Below, piece after piece: positions 3,936 to 27,378 of a stretch of 27,378 nt of DNA. A program made the position numbers and the translations under genes. The notes beneath the pieces were generated by a model that searched no databases, was not told where the DNA came from, and was given only the letters and a program-made list of their open reading frames with translations. Position 1 is the stretch's first letter. The number at the start of each line of letters is the position of its first letter. The stretch spans positions 1 through 27,378 of the forward strand of contig JAAYZK010000107.1 of the NCBI GenBank assembly GCA_012514895.1, read 5' to 3'. This DNA is from Planctomycetota bacterium (GTDB lineage: Bacteria > Planctomycetota > Phycisphaerae > SM23-33 > FEN-1343).

Positions 3936-4398
3936 CGTTCTCGCTCCAAGGTTCGTGAATCCCCCATCTCGGGGGTCCATGGGTTGCACACTCTAAGCCG
4001 ACACACACGCAACGAAAAGGGGACCTCGTCGACCGCCAGAGACCGGGGGATGCCGCCGTCACACGGAAGTGCCCGAAAAGGCCGGACTTATCGCCGCCAC
4101 GTCGCGCGGAAAGCTCAAATCGACATCAGCGGACCCATCACACGAGCCGACGGCGCGGGCCTTCAGTGCCTCCGGGGGCATCCCCCGGTACACATGCCCG
4201 ACAAGCGGCCCGTTCGGGCCGTCACTCCTTCAGCCTGTCGACGCCGCCGCCGCATCATCCCGACTCCCATCAGGCGTCCGCCCACGGCACCCCCGTCACG
4301 CGGACGGCCCGTAAGTCACTACACTACTTCGGCTCCAGGAGCCTGTCAATGGGGCTGTGAAAAAAATAACAGGTCGAGTCAGGATTTTCCGATTCCCT

Positions 4399-4426
4399 TT
4401 GAAACGCCGCGATCAGTATGTATAGT
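4399..4426 (+). promoter_or_regulatory. Sigma70-like promoter candidate for tRNA-Ala: -35 TTGAAA (4399-4404), 16-nt spacer, -10 TATAGT (4421-4426), with an upstream A-tract (4355-4372).
   Basis: Read directly. The -10 element lies about 30 nt upstream of the mature tRNA 5' end. Confidence 0.45.
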
Positions 4427-4455
4427 GGCTTCGTCCGGCCCCCGAGGCCTGACGC

Positions 4456-4528
4456 GGGGACGTAGCTCAGTTGGGAGAGCGGCTGGTTCGCAATCAGCAG
4501 GTCGAGGGTTCGAATCCCTTCGTCTCCA
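4456..4528 (+). tRNA. tRNA-Ala, anticodon CGC; no CCA encoded.
   Basis: Cloverleaf folded by hand: acceptor GGGGACG/CGTCTCC carrying the G3:U70 alanine identity pair; D-arm GCTCAGTTGGGAGAGC; anticodon stem GCTGG/TCAGC with loop TTCGCAA (anticodon CGC); T-arm GAGGGTTCGAATCCCTT; discriminator A. Confidence 0.9.
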
Positions 4529-4532
4529 GTCT

Positions 4533-4562
4533 TCGTTCGCCGCGGCCGACGATCGCGGCGAA
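4533..4562. terminator. Perfect 10-11-bp hairpin (GTTCGCCGCG ... CGCGGCGAAC) between the tRNA-Ala 3' end and the stop of the convergent minus-strand gene.
   Basis: Inverted repeat CGTTCGCCGCG-gccgacgat-CGCGGCGAACG read from the sequence. Weak T-run. Confidence 0.45.
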
Positions 4563-4566
4563 CGTT

Positions 4567-5128
4567 CTACCGGTGCGTCCGGGCGAGCAGCCGACGGTCC
4601 CAGCCGGGCTCGGCGGGGTGCAGGGATTGGACGTCCACGGTGAGCGACACGCCGGAGGCCTGCAGCAGCGCCTTGAAGTCGAGGCGGTCCAGGCGGTCGA
4701 AACAGTCCAGCGTGATCGCGTAGAGGGCGTTGCGGCGTTCGTCCCCCTCGGGCAGCCGGCGCGCCTCGGCGATGCGATCCTCGGCGTTGCGGATCTCCCT
4801 GAAGAAATCCGGCCAGAAGGCCGGCCCGTACCGCCGCCGGCAGAGGTGCAGCAGGTGCGCGTGGATCCTGTCGACCTGGTTGCACGAGCCGCACCACATC
4901 CATCCCGCTGGCCAGATGCCCCAGGCCCGTCGGGCAGAGGGTGGCGGCATCGGACAGATCGGCGTGCACCGCGCCTTCGACGATGACGTACGCCTTGTCG
5001 GTGGCGTCGAAGTGCCCCATCAGCGCGAGGTCCCACACGACGGCATCGCCCGCCTCCGCCGACACGGCGCGGGCGGTCGAGGCGAGGCATGCTCCCGCAG
5101 CCACTATCACGATGGCCGTCCTGATCAT
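4567..5128 (-). pseudogene. Secreted CxxC (thioredoxin-like, WCGSC motif) protein with an apparent +1 frameshift near 4905-4945. The N-terminal frame (5128 downwards) carries a Sec signal peptide and the C-terminal frame (down to 4567) carries the WCGSC motif and a protein-like tail.
   Basis: GGGGAG RBS 7 nt upstream of ATG 5128. Signal peptide MIRTAIVIVAAGACLASTARA/VS. Two protein-like segments lie in frames offset by 1 nt. The extension of the 249-aa ORF through tRNA-Ala is Arg/Pro/Gly junk. The C-terminal frame has no credible start of its own. Confidence 0.45.
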
Positions 5129-10653: not shown

Positions 10654-10768
10654 GACGGCAGGCTGCAGGCTACCGGCTGCTGGCTGTAGGGGCGGTCGGC
10701 GCATAGCGTTGCCGTTCCTGCAGCCTGTAGCCAGCGGCCTGCCGTTCTCAGGCTGCCGTTCTTCCCTC
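10654..10768. repeat. Imperfect palindromic intergenic element built from GGAAGAACGGC / GCCGTTCTTCC and CAGGCTGCAGG / CCTGCAGCCTG arms. A core of about 22 bp (GCCGTTCCTGCAGCCTGTAGCC, 10719-10740) recurs in inverted orientation at 12301-12326.
   Basis: Reverse complement of 12301-12326 (CAGGCTGCAGGCTGCAGGAACGGCCT) is about 90% identical to 10719-10740. Both copies are intergenic. Confidence 0.55.
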
Positions 10769-10831
10769 GACGACCAGGGTCTGCCGTGGTACGATGCCGC
10801 CGATGATCGACCCTTGCCCGGAGGCACAGCC

Positions 10832-11155
10832 ATGATCCAGTGCCAGGACTGTGAGTTCTTCGAACATAACGCCAAAGGCGGATTCGGCTTCAAGTGCGAC
10901 CCTTTCCGCACGATCAAGGAGCCGGAGTGCCTCACCAAGTGGCAGCTCATCAAGATCGAGCAGATGGTGCAGGCCTACCAGGCAACGCTCGACTACTACC
11001 GCCGTCTGGCACCCCTGCAGGAAAAGATGTTCCGCGTCATGGAGCGCGAGATGGACGACCTCAACGAGTCCGAAAACTGGAAACTCGCCGACGACGAAGA
11101 AGAAGACGATGACGGTCCTTACGACGACGAAGACCGGTGGGGTCGCCCCACTTGA
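10832..11155 (+). CDS. Small (107 aa) hypothetical protein with an N-terminal Cys4 cluster (CxxC-x14-C-x10-C) and a strongly acidic C-terminal tail (DDEEEDDDGPYDDED). Start at MIQCQDCEFF (GGAGG 8 nt upstream), not the ORF-track start at 10709.
   Basis: RBS GGAGG before ATG 10832. The upstream part of the 148-aa ORF overlaps the palindromic repeat region and lacks an RBS. Composition is protein-like. Confidence 0.55.
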   Translation: MIQCQDCEFFEHNAKGGFGFKCDPFRTIKEPECLTKWQLIKIEQMVQAYQATLDYYRRLAPLQEKMFRVMEREMDDLNESENWKLADDEEEDDDGPYDDEDRWGRPT

Positions 11156-14620: not shown

Positions 14621-15613
14621 ATGGAACACCGCAGACTCGGCTCGACCGACATCGACGTGTCCGTCATCACCTTCGGCGCCTGGGCGATCGGCGGCTGGAT
14701 GTGGGGCGGACAGGAGGAGAAGGACGCCATCGCGGCGATCCACGCGGCCCTGGACCACGGCGTCACGAGCATCGACACCGCCGCCGTGTACGGCTTCGGC
14801 GACTCCGAGCGGCTCGTCCGCAAGGCGGTCGGCAAGCGGCGCCACGAGGTGCGGATCTTCACGAAGTTCGGCCTGCGCTGGGACCGTGACGAGGGCGAGG
14901 TGCGGTTCGAGACCTTCGACAACGACGGCCGTCCCGTGAAGGTCCGTCGCAACGCACGGCCCGACAGCGTCATCGAGGAGTGCGACAACAGTCTGCGGCG
15001 GCTGGGCACCGACTATATCGACCTGTTCCAGATCCACTGGCCCGACCCGCAGACGCCCGTCGAAGAGACGATGGCGGCCCTGGACAGGCTCCTCCAGGCC
15101 GGCAAGATCCTCGCCGCCGGCGTGAGCAACTACTCCGTCGAGGACCTCGACCGCGCCCGCAGGACCTGCCCCATCGCCTCCTCGCAGCCGCCCTACAGCA
15201 TGGTCCTGCGCGGGGCCGAGAAGGACATGCTGCCCTACTGCCGCGAGCACACCATCGGCGTGGTCGTCTACTCGCCCCTGCAGAGGGGCCTGCTGACTGG
15301 CAAGGTGACGGCCGACCGGGAGTTCCCCGAGGACGACCATCGGCGGACCAACCCGCTGTTCAGCGTTGAGAACCGCAGGCGCGTCAACGCTTTCCTGGAT
15401 GAGATCCGCCCGGTCGCCGAGGCCCACGACGTGACGCTCGCCCAACTCGCCATCAACTGGACGATCCATCGCCCCGGCATCACCGCCGCCCTGGTCGGCA
15501 GCCGCAACGCCAGGCAGGCCGCGGAAAACGCCCAGGCCGCGAGCTTCAAGCTGAGGCCGGACGAGACGGCGTTCATCAATGAGCGGTTGGAGCGGCTGGA
15601 ACTGCTGCCGTAA
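14621..15613 (+). CDS. Aldo-keto reductase family oxidoreductase.
   Basis: AKR signature regions (IDTAAVYGFGDSE, HWPD, GVSNYS). 330 aa. GGGAG RBS. Confidence 0.9.
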   Translation: MEHRRLGSTDIDVSVITFGAWAIGGWMWGGQEEKDAIAAIHAALDHGVTSIDTAAVYGFGDSERLVRKAVGKRRHEVRIFTKFGLRWDRDEGEVRFETFDNDGRPVKVRRNARPDSVIEECDNSLRRLGTDYIDLFQIHWPDPQTPVEETMAALDRLLQAGKILAAGVSNYSVEDLDRARRTCPIASSQPPYSMVLRGAEKDMLPYCREHTIGVVVYSPLQRGLLTGKVTADREFPEDDHRRTNPLFSVENRRRVNAFLDEIRPVAEAHDVTLAQLAINWTIHRPGITAALVGSRNARQAAENAQAASFKLRPDETAFINERLERLELLP

Positions 15614-15618
15614 TCGTC

Positions 15619-16098
15619 TCACCCATGCAGCTTCACGGCCAGCTCGGCCACCATCGCCCCATACTCGCGGCCGTGTCGTGTGGCGCGGTCGTCGGGGACA
15701 TTGATGCCGACGGGCCCGTAGTGGTCGCCGCGGGCGACGCCCTTGACGACCATGCCGTGCACGAGCAGGCAGTTGAGGATGTCCAGGACGCAGGTCTCGT
15801 TGCCGCCGGCGAGGTTGGCCGAGGTGCAGAACGCCCCGCCGACCTTGCCGTCGAGTTTGCCGTGGTAAGCGACGGATTCGTCGATGAGCTTCTTGATCTC
15901 CCAGGCCATCGTCCCGTAGTAGACCGGCGAGCCGATCACGATCGCGTCGTAGCCCATCAGATCGGCGGCCTTGACCTGGGCGATCGGCTTGAAGTCCACC
16001 TCGGCGCCCGCCGTCTCGGCCGCCCCGTCCCGCACCGCCTCGGCCAGCGCCTGCGTGTGCCCGCTCCGCGTGTAGTACGTCACCAGTATCTTCGCCAT
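15619..16098 (-). CDS. Flavodoxin-fold NAD(P)H:quinone oxidoreductase / FMN reductase (WrbA-like), 160 aa. Start at MAKILVTYYTRSGHT (16098). The ORF-track extension to 16272 is rejected because it runs through tRNA-Leu.
   Basis: Flavodoxin-like FMN-binding N-terminus (ILVTYYTRSGHTQALAEAV), GSPVYYG motif. AAGGAA RBS about 14 nt upstream of ATG 16098. Confidence 0.85.
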   Translation of the reverse strand: MAKILVTYYTRSGHTQALAEAVRDGAAETAGAEVDFKPIAQVKAADLMGYDAIVIGSPVYYGTMAWEIKKLIDESVAYHGKLDGKVGGAFCTSANLAGGNETCVLDILNCLLVHGMVVKGVARGDHYGPVGINVPDDRATRHGREYGAMVAELAVKLHG

Positions 16099-16146
16099 GG
16101 GCGTCCCGTTCCTTTCCCGATGTTGTAGTCCGCACGTCCCGGCCAC

Positions 16147-16229
16147 TGGCCCGGGCGGGACTCGAACCCGCACGCCCTTGCGGGCAGGGGATTTTAAATC
16201 CCCAGCGTCTGCCATTCCGCCACCGGGCC
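16147..16229 (-). tRNA. tRNA-Leu, anticodon TAA, with a long variable arm; no CCA encoded.
   Basis: Reverse complement GGCCCGGTGGCGGAATGGCAGACGCTGGGGATTTAAAATCCCCTGCCCGCAAGGGCGTGCGGGTTCGAGTCCCGCCCGGGCCA. Acceptor GGCCCGG/CCGGGCC; anticodon stem GGGGA/TCCCC with loop TTTAAAA (anticodon UAA); long extra arm; T-arm GCGGGTTCGAGTCCCGC. Confidence 0.88.
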
Positions 16230-16244
16230 GGTGGGTGATGTTCC

Positions 16245-16272
16245 ATTCTATCCGCGACCGATGCGGATACAA
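16245..16272 (-). promoter_or_regulatory. Sigma70-like promoter candidate for tRNA-Leu on the minus strand: -35 TTGTAT, 16-nt spacer, -10 TAGAAT, about 15 nt before the tRNA 5' end. It overlaps an ATCCGC-N7-GCGGAT palindrome.
   Basis: Read from the reverse complement of 16245-16272. Confidence 0.4.
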
Positions 16273-16487
16273 CAGGACGCCAGGAGGTTATGAGAATCCG
16301 TCGCGGATTTTCCTTGCCGGATCGCCGGAAGGGTGCTAACGTTACATACGAATACTCCGGATCCGTTCGTCGCCGCCGGGTAAGGCGGAACCACGCGGGC
16401 GGGCCGGACGGTCAGAAAGGCACGGGGCCTTTCGCCGTTGGTGATCCCAGCCGACAGGCTGGGAGCCTAGCAGGAAGGAGTATCGTC

Positions 16488-17222
16488 ATGGGGCTTTTCA
16501 GGCGCATCCACCGTATCACCGTCGGCCGTGTCTCGGCGTTTCTCGATCGCGTGGAGGATCCCGAGATCGTCTTTCCCCAACTGCTTCGCGAGATGGAGCA
16601 GCAACTGCAGCAGGCCACGGGCCAGGAGGCCCGGGCGACCGCGGCGGTCACGCAGGTGGAGGTCAAGATCGACCGCCTCCGCCGCAAGGTCGAGGCCATG
16701 GGCCGCGGGGCCTTCCAGGCGCTCAAGCAGGACCGCGAGGACGTGGCCCGCGAGGCGCTGGGGGCGCAGATCGACACCGAACACGAGATCGAGCGGTTCG
16801 AGGCCAGCCTGGCGTCGCTGAAGGCCTCGCGCAACCTGGCCGAGGCGTCGCGCAAGCAGATCCAGCAGCAGCTCGAGCAGTTGCGCGCCCGCAAGCACGC
16901 CCTCATCACGCGCAGCCGTCTGGCGCGGACCCGCCGGCGGATCCAGCGGAGCCTCAACGGCGCGACGGTCTCCGGCGGCAGCATCCTCGACGCGGTCGCG
17001 CGGATGGAGGAGCACATCGAGTCCATCGAGGCCGAGATGGAGGTCCAGTGCCGCCTGACCGGCGAAGGGGTGCTCAACCCTGCCCTGGAGCTGAGTCTGG
17101 CCGAGCTGGACCAGGCCGGGCAGATCGACGAGCGCCTGGCGGACCTGAAGGTGCGCCTGAAGGGTCCGGGCAAGACCGCCCCGCTGGACCTGGCGCCGCA
17201 GACGGTCCAGTGGGGTCACTAG
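16488..17222 (+). CDS. pspA: PspA/IM30/Vipp1-family (ESCRT-III-like) protein, paralog 1 (244 aa). Start at MGLFRRIHRI (AGGAAGGAG RBS), not the ORF-track start at 16290.
   Basis: N-terminal amphipathic helix plus the conserved MGLFRR...FLDRVEDPE...LREMEQQL block typical of PspA/Vipp1. All-helical heptad-rich sequence; length about 220-250 aa. Confidence 0.88.
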   Translation: MGLFRRIHRITVGRVSAFLDRVEDPEIVFPQLLREMEQQLQQATGQEARATAAVTQVEVKIDRLRRKVEAMGRGAFQALKQDREDVAREALGAQIDTEHEIERFEASLASLKASRNLAEASRKQIQQQLEQLRARKHALITRSRLARTRRRIQRSLNGATVSGGSILDAVARMEEHIESIEAEMEVQCRLTGEGVLNPALELSLAELDQAGQIDERLADLKVRLKGPGKTAPLDLAPQTVQWGH

Positions 17223-17417
17223 GTCCCAATGTGCCCCATCGGCGGCGCCGCACGTGCGGCGCGGGTATCGGGACGATCGCCTTGGCACAGACGGATTGGG
17301 GCAGGCCGGTCGGGCACACGGTGACAGCGGAATGGGAAAGACGGCTTGCACGGCCGGGCGGCGGACGTTACTTTTGTGGCGCCCGGCCGTACGGCAGGCG
17401 GGCACGAGGGTACGACC

Positions 17418-18074
17418 ATGTCCATCCTAGCGCGAATCGGGCGGATCGCCAGGGCCAACATCCGTTGGCTCCTGGAGAAGGCCGAGCCGCCGGAACAGGA
17501 GTTGGCGGCGAAGATCGAGGAGCTGACCGCCGCGGTCGCCGAGTGCAAGGCCGCCGCGGGCACGTACGGGGCGACCTTCCGCCGCCTGGAGGCCGAGGCG
17601 GCCCAGCTTCGCGATCGCCAGGCCGGCCTGCACGAGCAGGCGGAGGCCGCGATCCGTGCCGGCGACGACGCGGCCGGCCGCGGCCTGCTGACGGAGAAGG
17701 TATCCGCCACGCAGCGGCTGGCGCAGCTCCAACCGGGGCTCGACCAGGGCCGCCGGACGCTCGACGAACTGCGGGACAACCTCGGCCGCCTGACCGATCA
17801 GCTCGCCGCGGCCCGCACGAAGCAGGCGGAGCTTCATGCCCGCCAGCGATCGGCGGCGGCCCGCAAGGCCTTCAGCGAGAACGCCGGGGCGGCCGACACG
17901 CTCGGCGGCGACGTGTTCGAACGCATGGACGACGAGGTCCTGCAGCTCGAGGCCGAGGCCGACGTCTGCGAGGACATGACCCGCTCGATGGACCTCGAGC
18001 GGCGGAGCCTGGAGCTCCAGGTCGAGGCGGAACTGGCCGCGATGAAGCAGCGTCTGACCGAGGGACGGCCATGA
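17418..18074 (+). CDS. pspA: PspA/IM30-family (ESCRT-III-like) protein, paralog 2 (218 aa). Start at MSILARIGRI.
   Basis: MSILARIGRIARANIRWLLEKAEPPEQEL matches the PspA N-terminus. Coiled-coil rich. Its stop overlaps the next gene's start (ATGA). Confidence 0.85.
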   Translation: MSILARIGRIARANIRWLLEKAEPPEQELAAKIEELTAAVAECKAAAGTYGATFRRLEAEAAQLRDRQAGLHEQAEAAIRAGDDAAGRGLLTEKVSATQRLAQLQPGLDQGRRTLDELRDNLGRLTDQLAAARTKQAELHARQRSAAARKAFSENAGAADTLGGDVFERMDDEVLQLEAEADVCEDMTRSMDLERRSLELQVEAELAAMKQRLTEGRP

Positions 18075-18784
18075 TCGAATTCCTGCAATTCGCCTTCCTG
18101 CCGGCCACGGCGGTGTTCTCCCTGCTGCTGGGCGTGGTGCTGCTGTACTGGCTGGTGGTGATCGTGGGGCTGCTGGACACGGACTTCCTGAACATCGACC
18201 TCCACACCGACGGGGATCTCGGCGATGTCGGCGACGCCGGGGACGTTGACGTCGATGCCGACGTCGATGTCGGCGAGGCCGGGGACCTGGGCGACGTGTT
18301 CCACGCGATGCTCTCGTTCTTCTACGTCGGCCGGATCCCGGTGACGGTGCTGGTGACGCTGATGGTGTTCAGCCTGTGGATCCTGGCGATGGCGGCCAAC
18401 CACGCCGTCAACCCGACCGGCGGCCTGCTGCTGGGGCTGCCGATCGCCGCGGGCAGTTTCGTCGCCAGCCTGTTCGTGGTGAAGGTGCTGGGATGGCCGT
18501 TCGCCAAGCTGTACCGGGCGATGGACGGCTCGCGCGACGGATTGAAGAACGTCACGGGCAAGCTGTGCGTCCTGCTGACGGCCGTCGGGCCGGGGCGCAC
18601 GGGCCAGGCGCAGGTGGCCACCGCCGGCGCGCCGGCCGTCGTGAACGTGATCGTCGAGGACGGCGTGACGCTGGAGCGCGGCTCGGAGGCGGTCGTCCTG
18701 GAATACCGCAAGGCGTCCCACGTGTACGTCGTGGCGCCGGTGGACCTGAACGCCCCGGCCAGGCCCGTCCAGGGCGCCGGCTGA
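18071..18784 (+). CDS. NfeD-like (YuaF-type) membrane protein: 3 TM helices plus a C-terminal OB-fold beta-barrel domain, with an unusual acidic (D-V/D-G)n repeat loop between TM1 and TM2. Translationally coupled to pspA paralog 2 (ATGA overlap).
   Basis: Only the last 237 aa of the 578-aa track ORF are real; the upstream part overlaps pspA-1 and pspA-2 out of frame. TM segments FLPATAVFSLLLGVVLLYWLVVIVGLL, IPVTVLVTLMVFSLWILAMAA and LLLGLPIAAGSFVASLFVV. C-terminal GKLCVLLTAVGPGRTGQAQVATAGAPAVVNVIVEDGVTLERGSEAVVLE fits the NfeD OB-fold pattern. Sits directly upstream of a flotillin gene, as yuaF-floT does in Bacillus. Confidence 0.68.
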   Translation: MIEFLQFAFLPATAVFSLLLGVVLLYWLVVIVGLLDTDFLNIDLHTDGDLGDVGDAGDVDVDADVDVGEAGDLGDVFHAMLSFFYVGRIPVTVLVTLMVFSLWILAMAANHAVNPTGGLLLGLPIAAGSFVASLFVVKVLGWPFAKLYRAMDGSRDGLKNVTGKLCVLLTAVGPGRTGQAQVATAGAPAVVNVIVEDGVTLERGSEAVVLEYRKASHVYVVAPVDLNAPARPVQGAG

Positions 18785-18888
18785 CAGGCGGAGACGTCCC
18801 GCACCCGCGGCTGGGGACGGGTGCGATCGAGGAATGAACGACCGGCCCCCGCGGGGGCCGCTTACAGGAGACAGAGCTGATCAGTGTC

Positions 18889-20904
18889 TTGCTTGCCGAT
18901 GCGATCACCCAAGGGATGCTCATCGTCGCCGGGATCGGGGTCTTCATCCTCCTGGTGGCCGTCTATGTGATCATCAGGTGTTTTCACAAGGTCAGCCAGG
19001 GCGAGGCGCTCATCCGCAACGGCGTGGGCGGCACGAAGGTGACGTTCAGCGGGCTGGTGGTCTGGCCGATCATCCACCGCGCCGAGTACATGGACATCTC
19101 GGTCAAGCGGATCGCCATCGACCGCCGGGGCGACACCGGGCTGATCTGCCGGGACAACCTCCGCGCGGACATCCAGGTGGCGTTCTTCGTCCGCGTCAAC
19201 CCCACCGTCGCCGACGTTACTGCCGTCGCCCAGTCGCTGGGGGTCAAGCGGGCCAGCGACGAGAAGGCCCTGTACGACCTGTTCGACTCGAAGTTCTCCG
19301 AGGCCCTCAAGACCGCCGGCAAGCGGTTCGACTTCGCCGAGCTGTACGTCTCGCGGGACAAGTTCAAGGAGGAGATCCTCCAGGTCATCGGGCGCGACCT
19401 GAACGGCTACGTCCTGGAAGACGCCGCCATCGACTACCTCGAGCAGACCGACAAGAACCTGCTGAATCCCAACAACATCCTGGACGCCGAGGGCATCAAG
19501 AAGATCACCGTCCTGACCGCCGAGCAGTTCGAGCTGGCCAACGCCCGCGAGCGCGAGAAGGACAAGACGATCACCAAGCAGAATGTCGAGGCCCAGGAGG
19601 CGATCCTCGAGCTCAACAAGCAGCTCGCCGAGGCCCAGGCCAAGCAGAAGCGCGAGGTCGAGTCGGTCACGGCCCGCGAGGAGGCCGAGGCCAAGCGCGT
19701 GATCGCCGAGGAGCGCGAGAAGGCCGAGAAGGCGCGCATCAGCGCCGACGAGCAGATCGCGGTGGCCGAGGAGAACAAGCAGCGCCAGGTCATCGTCGCC
19801 GCCCGCAACAAGGAACGGACTGACGGGGTCGAGACCGAACGGGTCCAGCGCGACCGGCAGTTGGAGAAGACCGAGCGCGAGCGCCTCGTCCGCCTGGCCG
19901 AACTGGAGCGCGACAAGGTGGTCGAGACGGAAAACCGCGAGCTGCAGAACGTCATCCGCGAGCGTGTGACGGTCGAGAAGTCCGTGGCGGTCGAGGAAGA
20001 GAAGATCAAGGATACCCGCGAATTCGCCGGGGCCGACCGTTCCAAGCGGGTGCAGATCACCAAGGCCGAAGAGCAGGCCGAGCAGGCCCTGGTCAAGGAC
20101 ATCAAGCAGGCCGAAGCCTCCAAGCGGGCCGCCGAGCAGTACGCCGCCCAGCAGCTCATCGAGGCCGAGGCGAACGAGAAGGCCTCGATCAAGAACGCCG
20201 AGGCCACCAAGATCCTGGCGGCCGCATCGGTGAAGGAGCACGCGGTCACCGGCACCGCCGAGGCCGAGGTGATGGAAGCCAAGGCTGTCGCCACCGAGAA
20301 GCAGGGCACCGCCGAGGCGGTCGTGCTGCAGCGGAAGTACTCGGCCGAGGCGCAGGGCATCACCGAGAAGGCCGACGCCATGAAGAAGTTCCACGACGCC
20401 GGCAAGGAACACGAGGAGTTCAAGCTCAAGCTCAACAAGGACCGCGACGTCGACCTCGCCGCCATCGAGGCCAACCGCCTCATCGCCGCCGAGCAGGCCA
20501 GGCTCGTCGCCGAGGGCCTGCGATCGGCCAAGATCGACATCGTCGGCGGGGAGAACGACTTCTTCCAGAAGCTCGTCGGCGCCATCGGCAACGGCAAGGC
20601 GGTCGACCGGATGGTCGGCGGCTCGGACGTCCTGACGCAGGTCAAGGACGCCTTCCTCGCCGACGACCCCGAGCAGGCCCGCACGCAGATCCGCCAGTTC
20701 ATCAGCCGCTTCGGCATGACCAGCGACGACCTGAAGAACCTGACGATCTCGGCGCTGCTGGTCAAGCTCATGGGGCAGGCCGACGGCGAGACGAAGAGCG
20801 CCCTCAGTGCCCTGCTGGACAACGTCAGGAAGCTCGGCCTGCACGACGAACCGGCCCACCTGCTCGACCCGGCGGCCCGCATCGACAGGCTGCCCCGCGG
20901 CTGA
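18889..20904 (+). CDS. SPFH/Band-7 flotillin-family protein (FloT/YqiK-like), 671 aa. The start is uncertain: TTG 18889 or ATG 18916.
   Basis: N-terminal membrane hairpin (LIVAGIGVFILLVAVYVII). SPFH domain (GEALIRNGVGG...VWPIIHRAEYMDISVKRIAI...). A long EA-rich coiled-coil region and a flotillin-like C-terminal region. Confidence 0.88.
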   Translation: MLADAITQGMLIVAGIGVFILLVAVYVIIRCFHKVSQGEALIRNGVGGTKVTFSGLVVWPIIHRAEYMDISVKRIAIDRRGDTGLICRDNLRADIQVAFFVRVNPTVADVTAVAQSLGVKRASDEKALYDLFDSKFSEALKTAGKRFDFAELYVSRDKFKEEILQVIGRDLNGYVLEDAAIDYLEQTDKNLLNPNNILDAEGIKKITVLTAEQFELANAREREKDKTITKQNVEAQEAILELNKQLAEAQAKQKREVESVTAREEAEAKRVIAEEREKAEKARISADEQIAVAEENKQRQVIVAARNKERTDGVETERVQRDRQLEKTERERLVRLAELERDKVVETENRELQNVIRERVTVEKSVAVEEEKIKDTREFAGADRSKRVQITKAEEQAEQALVKDIKQAEASKRAAEQYAAQQLIEAEANEKASIKNAEATKILAAASVKEHAVTGTAEAEVMEAKAVATEKQGTAEAVVLQRKYSAEAQGITEKADAMKKFHDAGKEHEEFKLKLNKDRDVDLAAIEANRLIAAEQARLVAEGLRSAKIDIVGGENDFFQKLVGAIGNGKAVDRMVGGSDVLTQVKDAFLADDPEQARTQIRQFISRFGMTSDDLKNLTISALLVKLMGQADGETKSALSALLDNVRKLGLHDEPAHLLDPAARIDRLPRG

Positions 20905-20939
20905 TCGAGGAAGCGCCAGGCACGGAAGCGGCGTTGTCG

Positions 20940-20965
20940 CCCCTGCCCCTCTGAGGGGGCAGGGG
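20940..20965 (+). terminator. Perfect 10-bp GC hairpin (CCCCTGCCCC-tctgag-GGGGCAGGGG) between the flotillin gene and the giant ATPase gene. No U-tract follows, so it may be a partial terminator, an attenuator or an RNA-processing site.
   Basis: Inverted repeat read from the sequence. Confidence 0.35.
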
Positions 20966-21049
20966 TGACCGCCCGACGGCGTCGGACGGCCCTGACGGCC
21001 ACACGCCGCCGCCGGACGATGGGACGGACAGCGAGAATAGAACGCACCT

Positions 21050-24000
21050 ATGGCCGATAACCCGACAACGCAGTCGCAGACCGACAGCCCATCGAGCGAC
21101 ATCCAGCTCGAAGGCGGGACGTACGAGATCATCCGCAACCGCCTCCGCAAGCACGCCGACGACCTGCGAGGCCGCCTCGACAGGCTCAATGAGGCGCGCA
21201 AGGCCGTCTTCGGGGCGATCGAGACGAAGCTGCTCAGCTCCGAGCGGATCACGACCGACAACAACTGCATCCCGCGGGACATGATCACCGTCGGCGAGCG
21301 GTTCCTGTTCGGCTACAACGTCTTCATCGGCCTGCGCAGCGAAACGCGGCTGGAAGACGTCTTCGCGATGGTCCGCCGCACCGAAGGCCGTTTCGCCGCC
21401 GAGCCGCTCGACGCGATCGCCGACAAGGCGTTCCTGGCCGAATTCCGCAACCTCTACCAGTACTACCGCGGCGCGACTTTCGCGAAGTTCGCGGTGCTCG
21501 GCCCCTGCCTGTACATGGTTTTCCGCGTCGGCCGCGGAGCCGCCGACATCAAGGCGTTCAAGTGGCGCCTGACGGGCGACGGCGGCCTGGAGTACGCCGA
21601 CAGCCGGTCGACGCACGAGTTCGTCTTCCCGCCCCAGCACGAGTTCGCCTGGACGCGGGCCACGCACGACATGCACCGCTCGGGCGCCTGCCCGCACGTG
21701 TCGATCGAGGACCGCCTCTTCGTCGAGACCGTCGGCGGCGACCTGACAATCAAGATCGAGGACAACACCGCCACCGGCGAGGGCGTCTACAGCGAGCCGG
21801 TCGACAACGCCGACCAGACGCTCGACGACGCGGAGATCCACTATGCCGTCGTCGGCAACCTCATCCTGCTGAAGATCCGGCCCTACCAGGAGGAGGCGTA
21901 CCGGCACCTCGTCTTCAACGAGAAGACCCAGGACGTCGTCCGTATCGACTCGATCGCCGACGCCTGCGTCCTCCTGCCCGACGGGCACGGGCTGATCTTC
22001 CCCAAGGGCTACTACCTCCAGACCGGCCAGCAGAAGCTCTTCAACAACGACATGGAGGGGATGGTCTTCGAGAAGCGCCTGGCCAGCCCCAACGGCGAAG
22101 ACCACCTCTACGTCTTCTACAACCCCGACAGCGGCCAGTACGTCCTGCTGAGCTACAACGTCATCACGCAGGAGGTCGCCACCCCCATCGCCTGCGGCGG
22201 CTACTGCCTCTTCGACGACGGCACGCTGATGTACTTCCGCGCCGGCGATGAACCCCAGCGCCACCACGTCATCCAGATCTGGCAGACGCCCTACTGCGCC
22301 GCCGACCGCCTCACCGCGGCGCCGTCCGACACGTACCTGTTCAAGATCGGCAACAGGGAGATCGTCCGCTGCATGGCCGAGTGCGGCGAACTGCTGACGC
22401 TGCTGGCCAAGGAGGACTCCTACGCCAACCTCTACGTCGACCTCGCCCGGCGTGCAGAGGACATCCGCGATGCGTACTTCTGGCTGGGCAGCGCCGAGGC
22501 ATACGATCTCGCCGAACCGCTCGGGCAGATCCACGCCGCTGCCGCCTCGGCGATCGAGGAATACGAGAAGGTCGTCCGCACCCGCCAGGAGACCGCACGC
22601 CAAATCGCGGCCGTCGACAAGCGGGTCGGCGAACTGCTGAACCGCTCGAAGCGCGACCCGCTGAACGACGTCGACGCGTACGTCGCCCTGCTGGCCGACT
22701 TGCGGGCCGTGCGGGGCGAAGTGGTCACGTTGCGGGAACTGCGGTACGTCGACGCCGCGAAGGTCGAGGCCCTCGATCAGCAGGTGGCCGCGCGGACCGA
22801 CGAGCTGTCGGCCGGTTGTGTCGAGTTTCTCCTGCAGGAAGACAGCCTGCGGCCCTACCACGACCGCGTCGAGGCCCTGGACGCGGAGATCCCGCAGGCC
22901 GCAACGGCCGCGGCGGCGCGGGAGGTGGCCCAGGCCGTCGCGCAGACGGGCCGCGAGCTGGAGATGCTCACGGAGATCGTCTCGAACCTCAGGATCGACG
23001 ACGCCACGAAGACCACCGCGATCATCGACGGGATCTCGCTGGTCTACCAGCGGCTCAACCAGGTCAAGAGCAGCCTGCGGAACCGCCTGGACGAGCTGGG
23101 GCGCGCCGAAGGCCAGGCGGAATTCGCCTCGCAGACCCGCCTGCTGGACCAGGCGGCGGCGAACTACCTGGACGTGTGCGACGCGCCCGGGAAATGCGAC
23201 GACTACCTCGCCCGCCTGATGGCCCAGGCCGAGACGCTCGAAGCCCGTTTCGCCGACTTCGACGAGTTCATCCTGGCCCTCACCGCCAAGCGGGAGGAGC
23301 TCTACAACGCCTTCGAGGGCCGCAAGGTCCAGCTCGTCGAGCAGCGCAACCGCCGCGCGACGGCCCTGATGACGTCGGCCGAGCGGATCCTCAAGGGGAT
23401 CGCCAACCGCGTCGCGGCGATGGACGACCTCAACGCCATCGGCGGGTACTTCGCCGGGGACCTGATGATCGAGCGGCTGCGTGCGACGATCGATCAGCTC
23501 GAGCAGCTCGGCGACACGGTCAAGGCCGAGGACGTCCGCAGCCGCCTCAAGAGCATCCAGCAGGAGACCGTCCGCCAGCTCAAGGACCGTCAGGCGCTGT
23601 ACGAGGACGGCGACAACGTCATCCGTCTGGGCGAGCACCGCTTCGCCGTCAACCGCCAGCCGCTGGAACTGACGATCGTCCACCGCGACGGGGGGCTGTG
23701 GTTCCACCTGGCCGGGACGGGGTTCTTCGAGCCCATCGCCGACGAGGCCGTCGAGTCCTGCCGGGATGTGTGGGGCCTGGAGGTGATCTCCGAGACGCCC
23801 GAGGTCTACCGCGCCGAGTACCTCGCCTGGCAGTTCCTCGCCGCGGCCCGCGCCGACGGGAGCCTGGCCGGCCTGGCAGCCGCCGAACCGGCGGCCCTGC
23901 AGGAGCGGGTCCGCGCCTTCATGGCCGGCCGCTACGCCGAGGGGTACGTCAAGGGCGTCCACGACGCCGACGCCGCGGCCATCGCGGCGGCCCTGGTGCG

Positions 24001-26383
24001 GATGGAGACCACGCTGGGCCTGCTGCGGTACGGCCCGGCCGAGCGGGCGCTGGCGACGACGTTCTGGGGGCTGTGGGACGACGACAGCGACGGACAGAAA
24101 TGGCGGCTCAAGTCCCGCCTGGCGGCGATGGGGCACCTCCGCCGCCTCTTCGACCACGCCGCCGACGGCGGCCGCGACATCGCCGACCTGCGGGGGCGCC
24201 TGGAGCGATTCGCCCAGGCGACGCGGCTGTTCCCCGTCGAGCTGTGCGGCACGGCCGCCGAGTACCTTTTCCACGAACTGCTGGCCGCCAGACCGTTCGC
24301 GGTCTCGCAGCGGGCGGTCCAGTTGAAGGGCGACTTCCTCCGCCACCTGGAGCGGCAGGGTTTCGACGCGACCTTCCGGGCGGCCCTGGACGCCGTCGGC
24401 GCCGAACCCGCCGAGGCCTTCCGCCTGCGACGGGACTGGGTCCGGGCGTACCTGGCCGGCAACGGCCACGCCGACGACGCCGACGAGGTCGCCGCGCTCC
24501 TGGACGACGAGGACGCCGAGCGCACGGTCATCGCCGCCGAGACCACGGTGGAACTGACCGGCCTGGTCGGCTCGCACCCGCTCATCCGGGACGGCCGCTA
24601 CACGCTCGACTACCTGCGATTCGTCGGCCGCCTCGACCGCCACCAGCGGGTCGTCGCCCCGGCGTTCGCCCGATTCCAGGAGGCCAAGAAGGCCCTCACG
24701 GAGCAGTTCGCGCGGCAGTTGCGGCTCAGCGAGTTCGAGCCGCGGGTCCTGACGACGTTCGTCCGCAACCGGCTGATCGACCGGGTATACCTGCCGCTGC
24801 TGGGCGACAACCTGGCCAAGCAGATCGGTTCGGCCGGCGCGCAGAAGCGCACGGACCGCCAGGGGCTGCTGCTGCTGATCAGCCCGCCGGGGTATGGCAA
24901 GACGACGCTGATGGAGTACATCGCCAACCGCCTGGGGCTGATCTTCATGAAGATCAACGGCCCGGCCGTCGGCCACGCCGTCACCAGCCTGGACCCCGAC
25001 GAGGCCCCCAACGCCGCCGGGCGGGCCGAACTGCAGAAGCTCAACCTCGCCTTCGAGATGGGCGACAACGTGATGATCTACCTGGACGACATCCAGCACT
25101 GCAGCCCCGAATTGCTGCAGAAGTTCATCTCGCTGTGCGACGCCCAGCGGCGGGTCGAGGGCGTCTACAAGGGCCGCACCCGCACGTACGACCTGCGGGG
25201 CAAGCGCGTCTGCGTCGTCATGGCCGGCAACCCCTACACCGAGAGCGGGGAGACCTTCCGCATCCCGGACATGCTGGCCAACCGCGCCGACACGTACAAC
25301 ATCGGCGATATCGTCGGCGACAACTACGAGAGCTTCGTCGACAGCTACATCGAGAACTGCCTGACCTCCAACCCCGTCCTCGCCCCGCTCGCCCAGAGAA
25401 GCCAGGCCGACGTGTACAGCGTCATGAAGCTCGCGGGCGGCGCGTCGAGCGACGGGATCGACTTCGAAGGGCAGTACGCGCCCGACGAACTGAACCAGTT
25501 CGTCGCCACGATGAAGAAGCTCTTCGTCGTCCGCGAGGTCCTGCTGAAGGTCAACCAGCAGTACATCCGCTCGGCCGGCCAGGCCGACGAGTACCGCACC
25601 GAGCCGCCCTTCCTGCTGCAGGGCTCGTATCGCAACATGAACCGCATCGCCGCGCGCGTCGTGGCGGTGATGAACGACGCCGAACTGTGGACGCTGATCC
25701 TGGCGGCCTACGAGCAGGACGCCCAGACGCTCACCACCGGCGCCGAAAGCAACCTCCTGAAGTTCAAGGAGATGGTCGGCCGCCTCCGCGATGACGAGAA
25801 GGACCGCTGGGAGGCCATCAAGGCCACCTACCGCCGCCGCCAGTTGCTCGGCGGCAGCGACGAGGACAAGATCACGCAGGTCATCCGCCAGATCAACGCC
25901 CTCTCCGGGGGCCTGGACACCATCGGCGCCGCACTGGGCAAAGGCAGGGAGCAGTTCGCCGGCCTGGCCGGCGGGCTGGAGGGCATCCGCGCCGCCGTCG
26001 AGAAGGCGGCCGCCGCCGGGCGGACGGACGAGGGCCTCGCCGAACGGCTCGACGAAGTCGTCGCCGCCATCCGCCGGCAGGCGGCCCTGACGGCCGAGAC
26101 CGCGCGGCGGCACGAGGCGCTGACGATCAACGACAACGCCCAGACGCTGGTGGCGGTGCTCGAGGAGCAGTTCCAGATGCTCGAAACGTGGCTGGCGCCC
26201 GTCGAGCGCAGCGTCGAAGGGCGGGCGCAGTACATCGGCGACCTGATCGAGCGATTCCAGGCCATGGTTGAGGGGTATACTCAGTTGATCGCCCTGTTGA
26301 ACCGCAAGCGTGCCCTGCCGCAGGCGGGCGAGCCCCGGTTGGGCGATCCGGATGCGGCGCCGGACGAGGATAGGGGCGTGTAG
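21050..26383 (+). CDS. Giant (1777 aa) uncharacterised cytoplasmic protein. N-terminal beta-rich region of about 480 aa, a central coiled-coil/helical region of about 700 aa, and a C-terminal MoxR/AAA_5-like P-loop ATPase module (Walker A ISPPGYGKTT, Walker B-like MIYLDDIQH, sensor-1 VVMAGNPY, Arg in MLANRAD).
   Basis: Single uninterrupted ORF with protein-like composition throughout. No signal peptide or TM segments seen by eye. AAA_5/MoxR-like motif order in residues about 1290-1480. All overlapping long ORFs are Arg/Gly/Pro-rich artefacts. Confidence 0.85.
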   Translation: MADNPTTQSQTDSPSSDIQLEGGTYEIIRNRLRKHADDLRGRLDRLNEARKAVFGAIETKLLSSERITTDNNCIPRDMITVGERFLFGYNVFIGLRSETRLEDVFAMVRRTEGRFAAEPLDAIADKAFLAEFRNLYQYYRGATFAKFAVLGPCLYMVFRVGRGAADIKAFKWRLTGDGGLEYADSRSTHEFVFPPQHEFAWTRATHDMHRSGACPHVSIEDRLFVETVGGDLTIKIEDNTATGEGVYSEPVDNADQTLDDAEIHYAVVGNLILLKIRPYQEEAYRHLVFNEKTQDVVRIDSIADACVLLPDGHGLIFPKGYYLQTGQQKLFNNDMEGMVFEKRLASPNGEDHLYVFYNPDSGQYVLLSYNVITQEVATPIACGGYCLFDDGTLMYFRAGDEPQRHHVIQIWQTPYCAADRLTAAPSDTYLFKIGNREIVRCMAECGELLTLLAKEDSYANLYVDLARRAEDIRDAYFWLGSAEAYDLAEPLGQIHAAAASAIEEYEKVVRTRQETARQIAAVDKRVGELLNRSKRDPLNDVDAYVALLADLRAVRGEVVTLRELRYVDAAKVEALDQQVAARTDELSAGCVEFLLQEDSLRPYHDRVEALDAEIPQAATAAAAREVAQAVAQTGRELEMLTEIVSNLRIDDATKTTAIIDGISLVYQRLNQVKSSLRNRLDELGRAEGQAEFASQTRLLDQAAANYLDVCDAPGKCDDYLARLMAQAETLEARFADFDEFILALTAKREELYNAFEGRKVQLVEQRNRRATALMTSAERILKGIANRVAAMDDLNAIGGYFAGDLMIERLRATIDQLEQLGDTVKAEDVRSRLKSIQQETVRQLKDRQALYEDGDNVIRLGEHRFAVNRQPLELTIVHRDGGLWFHLAGTGFFEPIADEAVESCRDVWGLEVISETPEVYRAEYLAWQFLAAARADGSLAGLAAAEPAALQERVRAFMAGRYAEGYVKGVHDADAAAIAAALVRMETTLGLLRYGPAERALATTFWGLWDDDSDGQKWRLKSRLAAMGHLRRLFDHAADGGRDIADLRGRLERFAQATRLFPVELCGTAAEYLFHELLAARPFAVSQRAVQLKGDFLRHLERQGFDATFRAALDAVGAEPAEAFRLRRDWVRAYLAGNGHADDADEVAALLDDEDAERTVIAAETTVELTGLVGSHPLIRDGRYTLDYLRFVGRLDRHQRVVAPAFARFQEAKKALTEQFARQLRLSEFEPRVLTTFVRNRLIDRVYLPLLGDNLAKQIGSAGAQKRTDRQGLLLLISPPGYGKTTLMEYIANRLGLIFMKINGPAVGHAVTSLDPDEAPNAAGRAELQKLNLAFEMGDNVMIYLDDIQHCSPELLQKFISLCDAQRRVEGVYKGRTRTYDLRGKRVCVVMAGNPYTESGETFRIPDMLANRADTYNIGDIVGDNYESFVDSYIENCLTSNPVLAPLAQRSQADVYSVMKLAGGASSDGIDFEGQYAPDELNQFVATMKKLFVVREVLLKVNQQYIRSAGQADEYRTEPPFLLQGSYRNMNRIAARVVAVMNDAELWTLILAAYEQDAQTLTTGAESNLLKFKEMVGRLRDDEKDRWEAIKATYRRRQLLGGSDEDKITQVIRQINALSGGLDTIGAALGKGREQFAGLAGGLEGIRAAVEKAAAAGRTDEGLAERLDEVVAAIRRQAALTAETARRHEALTINDNAQTLVAVLEEQFQMLETWLAPVERSVEGRAQYIGDLIERFQAMVEGYTQLIALLNRKRALPQAGEPRLGDPDAAPDEDRGV

Positions 26384-26394
26384 AGGATGTACCG

Positions 26395-27063
26395 ATGGGA
26401 CTGATCAGCCGTCTGCGGCGCATTACCCGGGGGCGGATCGAGGCGTTTCTGGACGCCCTGGAAGACCCCGCCCTCATCGTGCCCCAGTTGATCGACGAAC
26501 TCGCCGACCAGGTGAAGGTGGCCGCGAACGCCGAGGCCAAGTCACTGACGGCCGTCAAGGCGCACCAGCGGAAGCTGGATGAAGCGACGGGCCGTGCGCT
26601 GCGGATGCAGCGGGGCGCCGAACTGGCGCTGGCGGCCGGCAAGGAGGATCTCGCCCGCCAGGCGGTGGCTCTCCAGCTTCAGGCCGAGCGCGACCAGCAG
26701 TCGCTGCGCGACATGCTCGCCGGCGCCCAGGCCGCCCACGCTGAAGCCCGCACCGTCCGCCGGCAGCTCGCCGCCGAACTGGAGTCGCTCCGCGCCCGTC
26801 GCGGGGAGCTGATCCGCCGCGCCAAGGCGCCTTCGGGCCCCGCACCCGCCCGCATCGCCTCGGACGGCCGGCGCCTGCTGGACGACGTCGCCCGCATGGA
26901 GGAGAAGGCCGTCGATGCTTCCGACGCCGCCGACGCCGCCGACGAGACCGCAGCACTGATCGAATCGGACCTCGCCTCCCGCCAGGTCGACGACCTCCTC
27001 CGCGACAACGAGGTCCAGCGGAGACTGGAGGACCTCAGGAAGCAGGTGGGCGGGCCCGGGTGA
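26395..27063 (+). CDS. pspA: PspA/IM30-family (ESCRT-III-like) protein, paralog 3 (222 aa), 11 bp downstream of the giant ATPase gene.
   Basis: MGLISRLRRITRGRIEAFLDALEDPALIVPQLIDEL matches the PspA/Vipp1 N-terminal block. Coiled-coil rich. A GAGG lies 7 nt upstream of the ATG. Confidence 0.85.
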   Translation: MGLISRLRRITRGRIEAFLDALEDPALIVPQLIDELADQVKVAANAEAKSLTAVKAHQRKLDEATGRALRMQRGAELALAAGKEDLARQAVALQLQAERDQQSLRDMLAGAQAAHAEARTVRRQLAAELESLRARRGELIRRAKAPSGPAPARIASDGRRLLDDVARMEEKAVDASDAADAADETAALIESDLASRQVDDLLRDNEVQRRLEDLRKQVGGPG

Positions 27064-27378
27064 CCGGTTCTATTCGGCGGAACGCCGCTGGATCTCTCCC
27101 CCTCCGAGAGAAACTCGCCCTGAGCCTGTCGAAAAGGCAGGATCGCAGACCGGATGTCCCGGGGCGCAGCGCGAGCGGAGCAGGGCGAGGGCGATTGCCC
27201 GGCAGCGGACGGTTCGCACCGCCCCGTGCCGCAACCTCTCCACCGCCGGGGGAGATCGGCCCGAAGGACCGGGTGGGGGCAGCCTTGGACGAACTACAGC
27301 GGTCGCAGGCGGGCGCGGGCTGGCCGGGCCCTCACGCCCACCCTTCGACTCCGCTCAGAACCGGCGCGGCCTGCGGCC

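Follow-up and report, generated by a model that had tools for sequence, protein, structure and literature searches.

A six-gene Phycisphaerae locus with three pspA paralogs and a giant AAA+ ATPase gene: a putative membrane-maintenance operon of the PspA/flotillin/AAA+ type

Operons that combine PspA, band-7/flotillin, beta-propeller AAA+ ATPase and YqiJ/YuaF proteins have been described by Ravi et al. (2024, mSystems, PMC11237479), who proposed a role for them in sub-membrane dynamics, found the abbreviated, PspA-less operons to be the more widespread, and reported that related operons contain CesT/Tir and phospholipase D genes. PspA belongs to the ESCRT-III superfamily, bacteria have no known equivalent of Vps4, and composite PspA polymers have been considered possible just in the <10% of lineages that carry PspA duplications (reviewed in PMC7619361). 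Published work on B. subtilis offers a precedent for an SPFH protein that links PspA to the membrane (PMC8581546, PMC9239133). The DNA analyzed here, referred to as the window, is a stretch of 27,378 nt from a Planctomycetota bacterium (Phycisphaerae) with a GC content of ~68%, in which the third of three pspA genes (pspA3) begins 11 nt behind the gene for a giant ATPase. All coordinates in the window follow this numbering.

Our data indicate that the 11-nt gap is probably the junction of the last two cistrons of a six-gene membrane-maintenance operon, and not the mark of an exclusive ATPase-PspA3 pair. The gene map, which was built from a frame plot of third-codon-position GC content (GC3) and from the translations, contains six genes on one strand (+): pspA1, pspA2, a yqiJ-like gene, a yqiK/flotillin-like gene, the ATPase gene and pspA3. 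These genes and the features of their spacers are as follows (aa, amino acids; SD, Shine-Dalgarno sequence):

16488-17222, + strand: pspA1 (group A1), 244 aa; PF04012, E 3.5e-26, 92.6 bits
17418-18074, + strand: pspA2 (group A2), 218 aa; PF04012, E 2.2e-24, 86.8 bits
18071-18784, + strand: yqiJ/NfeD-like membrane protein, 237 aa; GC3 frame plot, translation and YqiJ_N
18889-20904, + strand: yqiK/flotillin-like SPFH protein, ~662-671 aa; start at TTG 18889 or ATG 18916; hhalign to E. coli YqiK
20936-20969, + strand: perfect 15-bp GC hairpin in the flotillin-ATPase spacer; RNA fold
21050-26383, + strand: giant ATPase, 1777 aa; DUF3686, DUF7902, AAA/AAA_5
26384-26394, + strand: spacer AGGATGTACCG, 11 nt, with an SD-like AGGA; read from the sequence
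26395-27063, + strand: pspA3 (group A3), 222 aa, last gene of the putative operon; PF04012, E 4.9e-13, 49.6 bits

The core proteins are the same as those of the published operons (PMC11237479), and the locus is a lineage-specific layout of that operon type, with three PspAs and recurring in one Phycisphaerae clade; the layout is new. The published type pairs a PspA of the YjfJ family with a CesT/Tir chaperone, whereas the window lacks a CesT/Tir gene and encodes PspAs that match PspA/Vipp1 and not YjfJ. It also has three old PspA paralogs where the published type has one, and it places a PspA gene after the ATPase gene, an order that is not mentioned in PMC11237479, where Planctomycetes are mentioned once, in another context. 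The YqiJ/YqiK-type pair is shared with E. coli yqiJ-yqiK, but the E. coli pair has no adjacent giant ATPase or PspA gene, and the PspA/YdjI and NfeD/flotillin system of B. subtilis lacks an ATPase.

The prediction that the six-gene block forms one operon is drawn from the same-strand order, the short gaps and the conserved synteny. The ATG of the yqiJ-like gene overlaps the TGA of pspA2 (ATGA, 18071-18074), which is the sole true overlap-type junction in the block, and the genes found 3' of pspA3 orthologs vary from genome to genome. At the other end, pspA1 has a strong AAGGAG SD 7 nt 5' of its start at 16488, and its orthologs share the same MG... start; a longer pspA1 reading frame from 16290 finds no support among the orthologs.

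To place the ATPase in a wider context, homologous loci were scanned with one genome per species. This gave at least 593 loci, of which the best 80, from Planctomycetota, Bacteroidota, Verrucomicrobiota, Desulfobacterota, Kiritimatiellota, Fibrobacterota and Hydrogenedentota, were annotated with phmmer and an iterated PspA hidden Markov model (HMM). The neighbor counts, whose denominators are the loci with enough flank among these best 80 (64 upstream, 69 downstream), were:

YqiK upstream of the ATPase: 59/64 loci
YqiJ upstream of the ATPase: 57/64 loci
PspA upstream of the ATPase: 14/64 loci (Bacteroidota and one Kiritimatiellota)
PspA directly downstream of the ATPase: 3/69 loci

By these counts, which draw on loci from at least six phyla, the constant partners of the ATPase are the SPFH/YqiJ pair and not PspA, and the core of the system is a widespread yqiJ-yqiK-ATPase cassette. 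The counts also confirm the wider spread of PspA-less operons reported in PMC11237479. The cassette itself shows some variation: the flotillin-ATPase gap in Bacteroidota loci (L030, L058, L065) is 0.6-3 kb with further genes inserted, and an extra small (~190 aa) Band_7 gene lies between yqiJ and the large flotillin gene in L083 (1849-2421) and also in L011 and L017.

In the window, the YqiJ-like protein scores 22.8 bits against Pfam YqiJ_N, just under the cut-off of 23 (E 1.1e-4), and matches E. coli YqiJ by BLASTP with an E of 0.007; its position and synteny fit a YqiJ/YuaF-type gene. This gene, between pspA2 and the flotillin gene, had been missing from the first-pass annotation of the window. 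The flotillin-like protein has no match in Pfam (including Band_7) or NCBIfam, and a 26-sequence profile of it aligns by hhalign with E. coli YqiK with a probability of 100% (E 2.7e-39, 394 columns). A profile search of the PDB with the same protein returned just a weak coiled-coil match to QmcA, and homology was settled by the alignment to YqiK.

The distribution of the PspA genes was determined from context look-ups and a metagenome scan for the PspA3 clade, which is small (39 clusters at 90% identity). The full order A1-A2-yqiJ-yqiK-ATPase-A3 is present in every locus with enough upstream sequence (the window, L081, L083, L102, L104 and L111), and in the ATPase tree all A3-bearing loci form one clade. 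Loci L003-L007, which are nested in this clade, are without all three PspAs, and this implies a secondary loss of the whole PspA set; the three paralogs are gained or lost together. The more distant locus L120 has the order A1-A2-A3-yqiJ-yqiK, and the short contigs L091 and L109 carry a contiguous A1-A2-A3. Taken together with the set-wise presence and absence, these orders identify the triad as a conserved unit, and the position of A3 behind the ATPase gene is a derived but stable gene order. In L120 (1591-9383), the A1-A2-A3-yqiJ-yqiK block divergently adjoins a Pom/NfeD/bactofilin/FloA block, which is a second, different flotillin system. A3-clade singletons also occur in other Phycisphaerae (L084/L085, 10001-10657; L119, 10001-10657), where they lie after genes for a secretin, T2SSE and a multi-transmembrane protein of 201-208 aa and before a DUF389 gene. 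Their position after secretin genes recalls the secretin-induced Psp response of enterobacteria.

All three PspA proteins exceed the gathering score of PF04012 (PspA_IM30, 33.9 bits), and they cover profile positions 1-2 to 205-217 of 220. Each has an MG(L/I)xxR amphipathic N-terminus and an EDPE/EPPE block, as the first-pass annotation had described, and each aligns with E. coli PspA from residue 1, with R6, I10, L19, E23 and P25 kept at the sequence level. PspA3, the lowest-scoring of the three, matched PspA (4WHE, E 3.7e-9) and Vipp1 in the PDB, with E values in the range of 4e-9 to 4e-7. Pairwise identity among the window paralogs is 19-34%, while the window PspAs share 36-52% identity with their orthologs elsewhere, so that a recent tandem duplication is rejected and the paralogs are as divergent as had been claimed. 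The clade HMMs place every PspA unambiguously in A1, A2 or A3: the A2 HMM scores 322 bits on PspA2, compared to 42 bits with the A1 HMM and 31 bits with the A3 HMM, and the A3 HMM scores 300 bits on PspA3. The same three HMMs match E. coli PspA and Vipp1 with E values of 1e-16 to 1e-32 and gave no match to YjfJ with the limit relaxed to E < 100. A neighbor-joining tree places A1 and A3 as sisters. By these sequence comparisons, A1, A2 and A3 are old, separate orthologous groups.

The C-terminal features that had been singled out as possible partner-binding motifs did not withstand comparison with the orthologs. The segment KAPSGPAPARIASDG, which had been read as a Pro/Ala-rich insert of PspA3, is no insert, as it falls in a length-variable linker and the window protein is the shortest of 25 A3 orthologs. 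The DASDAADAADE segment, which had been read as an acidic tail, is located ~40 residues short of the C-terminus, in alignment with the acidic EAE-type segment of the family (...MEAEAE...). Neither is conserved in the 25-sequence A3-clade alignment, and the extended C-terminus of PspA1 is present in the window protein only and absent from its orthologs. What remains of the idea is that each group keeps its own conserved C-terminal signature (EAELEIQA.LTGE in A1, RSR.LQ.EAEL in A2, DAEV.RRL..LK in A3), a pattern in keeping with specialized contacts within a polymer. At its terminus, A3 has a motif similar to the one in E. coli PspA; apart from the ExxRLxxLK that is common across the PspA family, no conserved terminal motif specific to A3 was observed. 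Conservation within the A3 clade is highest over the first 100 residues, which form the hairpin.

At the junction itself, the ATPase gene stops with TAG at 26381-26383 and pspA3 starts with ATG at 26395, which confirms a spacer, AGGATGTACCG, of exactly 11 nt. An SD-like GAGGA/AGGA at 26383-26387 overlaps the ATPase stop codon and is located 7 nt before the pspA3 ATG, and RNA folding of the junction gave no unusual or occluding structure (z +1.06). This combination makes re-initiation after termination plausible in this genome, and the translational coupling that had been proposed for the two genes is, as predicted from the junction sequence, plausible here. Other genomes and metagenomes supply 24 distinct junctions at which a PspA3-type gene lies directly 3' of the homologous ATPase gene, a recurrence beyond chance; here the gap ranges from -4 to 151 nt (median 29; 21/24 at <=53 nt) and many of the spacers have no visible SD; strict coupling is therefore not a conserved property. 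The same-strand linkage of the two genes is conserved, so that co-transcription and a functional link are well founded, and co-expression of the ATPase and pspA3 is well supported as a prediction from gene arrangement.

The ATPase has an N-terminal helix, a beta-propeller/DUF3686 region (38-477), a helical region with DUF7902 (598-681), a MoxR-like AAA+ module (~1241-1600, matched by Pfam AAA and AAA_5) and a C-terminal coiled coil. Searches of the PDB with the single sequence and with a 12-sequence profile returned just ~40-residue Walker-A matches to p97 and RuvB; matches this short do not identify the AAA+ clade, and fold comparison was needed. AlphaFold2 models cover residues 1-600 and 1180-1777. 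The first model (predicted local distance difference test score, pLDDT, 87) contains a helix at 21-54, an all-beta region at 60-412 and helical hairpins, and its Foldseek matches are WD40 and further beta-propellers, among them DCAF1, the clathrin terminal domain and Vps18. Foldseek matches to clathrin, Vps18 and IFT-A with low template modeling scores may suggest a protocoatomer-like membrane coat for the propeller and helical region. The second model (pLDDT 78) contains an AAA+ core, in which a beta-hairpin precedes sensor 1, followed by a low-confidence coiled coil. Judged from this model, the AAA+ domain is MoxR-like (AAA_5-type) and not classical-clade. Walker A (SPPGYGKTT), Walker B (hhYhDDIQH), sensor 1 (MAGNPY) and the NRAD arginine are near-invariant in 88 homologs. 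At E <= 1e-30, homologs of the N-terminal region form ~280 clusters (50% identity), almost all with lengths of 1600-1900 aa. The described MoxR-family chaperones (NorQ/NorD, CbbQ/CbbO, RavA/ViaA) are ~250-500 aa in length and work with a VWA-domain partner, whereas the module in the window lies at residue 1240 of a 1777-aa protein, has DD in Walker B and has no VWA gene in the operon. By Pfam, no VWA domain was found in the operon proteins, and none was found in the called neighbors of L081, L083, L117 and L118. Among the papers searched, none reports experiments on a member of this ATPase family, and a paper on a P. aeruginosa SPFH protein mentions no ATPase.

These features are consistent with a machine for membrane maintenance or remodeling. 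YqiJ and YqiK would form a membrane-anchored SPFH scaffold, and the three PspAs would assemble into membrane-bound ESCRT-III-type polymers, which may be mixed, as the paralog-specific conserved C-terminal helices suggest. The ATPase would use ATP to assemble, remodel or release the SPFH and/or PspA assemblies, and its beta-propeller and long helical region may be the binding platform. PspA3 and the ATPase would be made from the same transcript, on which, in this genome, the short spacer and its SD would let terminating ribosomes re-initiate. The adjacency of the two genes would reflect membership in the module, and this shared membership is likely the functional link between PspA3 and the ATPase.

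Several observations weigh against this interpretation of the locus. The gap of 195 nt between pspA1 and pspA2 and that of 145 nt between the flotillin and ATPase genes, together with the hairpin at 20936-20969, could be borders of transcription or stability units. No promoter was called (0 found) by a sigma-70 scan of 15600-27378, whose model may be a poor match for planctomycete promoters. The PspA3-like genes that stand alone beside secretin and type II secretion system genes indicate that the A3 clade does not need the ATPase. Finally, Walker B of the ATPase is DD instead of DE (25085-25099, residues 1346-1350), invariantly so in the 88 homologs from several phyla, and ATP hydrolysis may thus be slow or regulated. 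The hairpin, GUCGCCCCUGCCCCU-CUGA-GGGGGCAGGGGUGAC, is without a U-tract and lies in a spacer (20905-21049) with a minimum free energy of -73.1 kcal/mol (z -2.7 against shuffles); it may act as an attenuator inside the operon or affect the stability or processing of the RNA. A scan of 15600-27378 for intrinsic terminators gave matches no more than at shuffle level, and this and the promoter scan are silent on a separate promoter for pspA3.

The tight linkage had originally been taken as the sign of a cognate ESCRT-III/Vps4-like pair, in which the C-terminus of PspA3 would bind the ATPase, the ATPase would disassemble PspA3 polymers, and the coupling would set their stoichiometry. The linkage has stood, with immediate adjacency kept at the 24 junctions, and the 11-nt spacer whose SD overlaps the stop codon, the A3-own C-terminal signature (...DAEVxRRLxxLK) and the place of PspA in a superfamily with no known bacterial Vps4 equivalent (PMC7619361) speak for such a pair. 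The exclusiveness has not, since most ATPase homologs have no PspA nearby and nearly all have YqiJ/YqiK (~90% of loci), the A3 gene has another place in L120, the spacer length varies, the cited tail and insert features are not conserved, and the ExxRLxxLK motif is found even in E. coli PspA. The locus is like the ESCRT-III/Vps4 systems of archaea and eukaryotes in that several ESCRT-III-superfamily paralogs are encoded beside a dedicated AAA+ ATPase, which might conceivably take part in polymer turnover. Homology does not support the analogy: the ATPase is MoxR-like, ~4x larger than Vps4 and fitted with a beta-propeller, a Pfam search of residues 601-1179 and 1601-1777 returned no MIT domain with E relaxed to 10, and the constant partners are SPFH/NfeD-type proteins. 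An exclusive pair is considered unlikely.

Two further explanations give PspA3 or the ATPase a different role. By analogy with E. coli PspA-PspF, PspA3 might be a regulator and not a substrate, keeping the ATPase switched off until PspA3 is drawn to the membrane by membrane stress. There is precedent (PMC3128695, PMC6003685) for binding and inhibition of an AAA+ hexamer by the PspA N-terminal hairpin; this hairpin is the best-conserved part of the A3 clade, and a pspA3 gene directly after the ATPase gene would favor matched synthesis. The ATPase, however, has no Sigma54_activat match in Pfam, the PspF W56-loop context is absent, and the sigma-54 motif TGGCAC-N5-TTGC was found 16 times compared to 24 times expected in shuffles, with no match 5' of pspA1 or pspA3. 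With neither an activator domain nor a promoter of the sigma-54 type, the PspF analogy is functional at most, and ATPase homologs in most lineages work without any PspA; such regulation appears quite improbable. The giant protein might instead be a DNA-repair ATPase or a part of an anti-phage defense system, to which the PspA and flotillin genes are mere neighbors. DUF3686 carries the Pfam description 'ATPase involved in DNA repair', NCBI homologs are named 'DNA repair ATPase', and there are weak P-loop-only matches to RuvB and, in PADLOC, to IetA. The name has no literature support, as no paper on DUF3686 was found; the RuvB and IetA matches span just ~30-50 residues at and near Walker A, a nuclease, helicase or DNA-binding domain is absent from the Pfam matches, PADLOC gave no significant defense-system match, and the synteny with the membrane proteins YqiJ and YqiK is kept across phyla. 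A repair or defense function with functionally unrelated neighbors is very hard to reconcile with these results and is given almost no weight. The junction of two cistrons in a membrane-maintenance operon therefore remains our preferred reading of the 11-nt gap.

Outside the six-gene block, tRNA-Leu(taa) lies just 5' of pspA1 at 16147-16229 (-), with no gene found between the two, and tRNA-Ala(cgc) lies further 5' at 4456-4528 (+). The open reading frames called over these tRNAs, at 15619-16272 (-) and 4379-5128 (-), are partly artefacts. A flavodoxin-like gene probably starts at an internal MAKILV, and the reading frame at 10709-11155 (148 aa) has a Cys-rich N-terminal part and an acidic C-terminus and belongs to no Pfam family (E > 0.005).

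For the ATPase family, the common database name 'DNA repair ATPase' is unsupported, and the conserved context, YqiJ/YqiK, is membrane-associated. The operon type described here joins three old PspAs to an SPFH scaffold and to a dedicated AAA+ ATPase of high conservation, all within one conserved block that resembles a transcription unit. The regulation and disassembly of bacterial PspA/Vipp1 polymers without Vps4, and the existence of composite polymers, are two questions for which it offers a concrete test system. A more speculative proposal, which we hold to be unlikely, is that the Phycisphaerae operon encodes an independently arisen bacterial counterpart of a multi-subunit ESCRT-III machine, in which the three old, specialized PspAs would co-polymerize on a flotillin/YqiJ platform and the giant MoxR-like beta-propeller ATPase would turn the polymer over. 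If this is true, the ATPase would act as Vps4's functional analogue in a domain of life that is thought to lack one.
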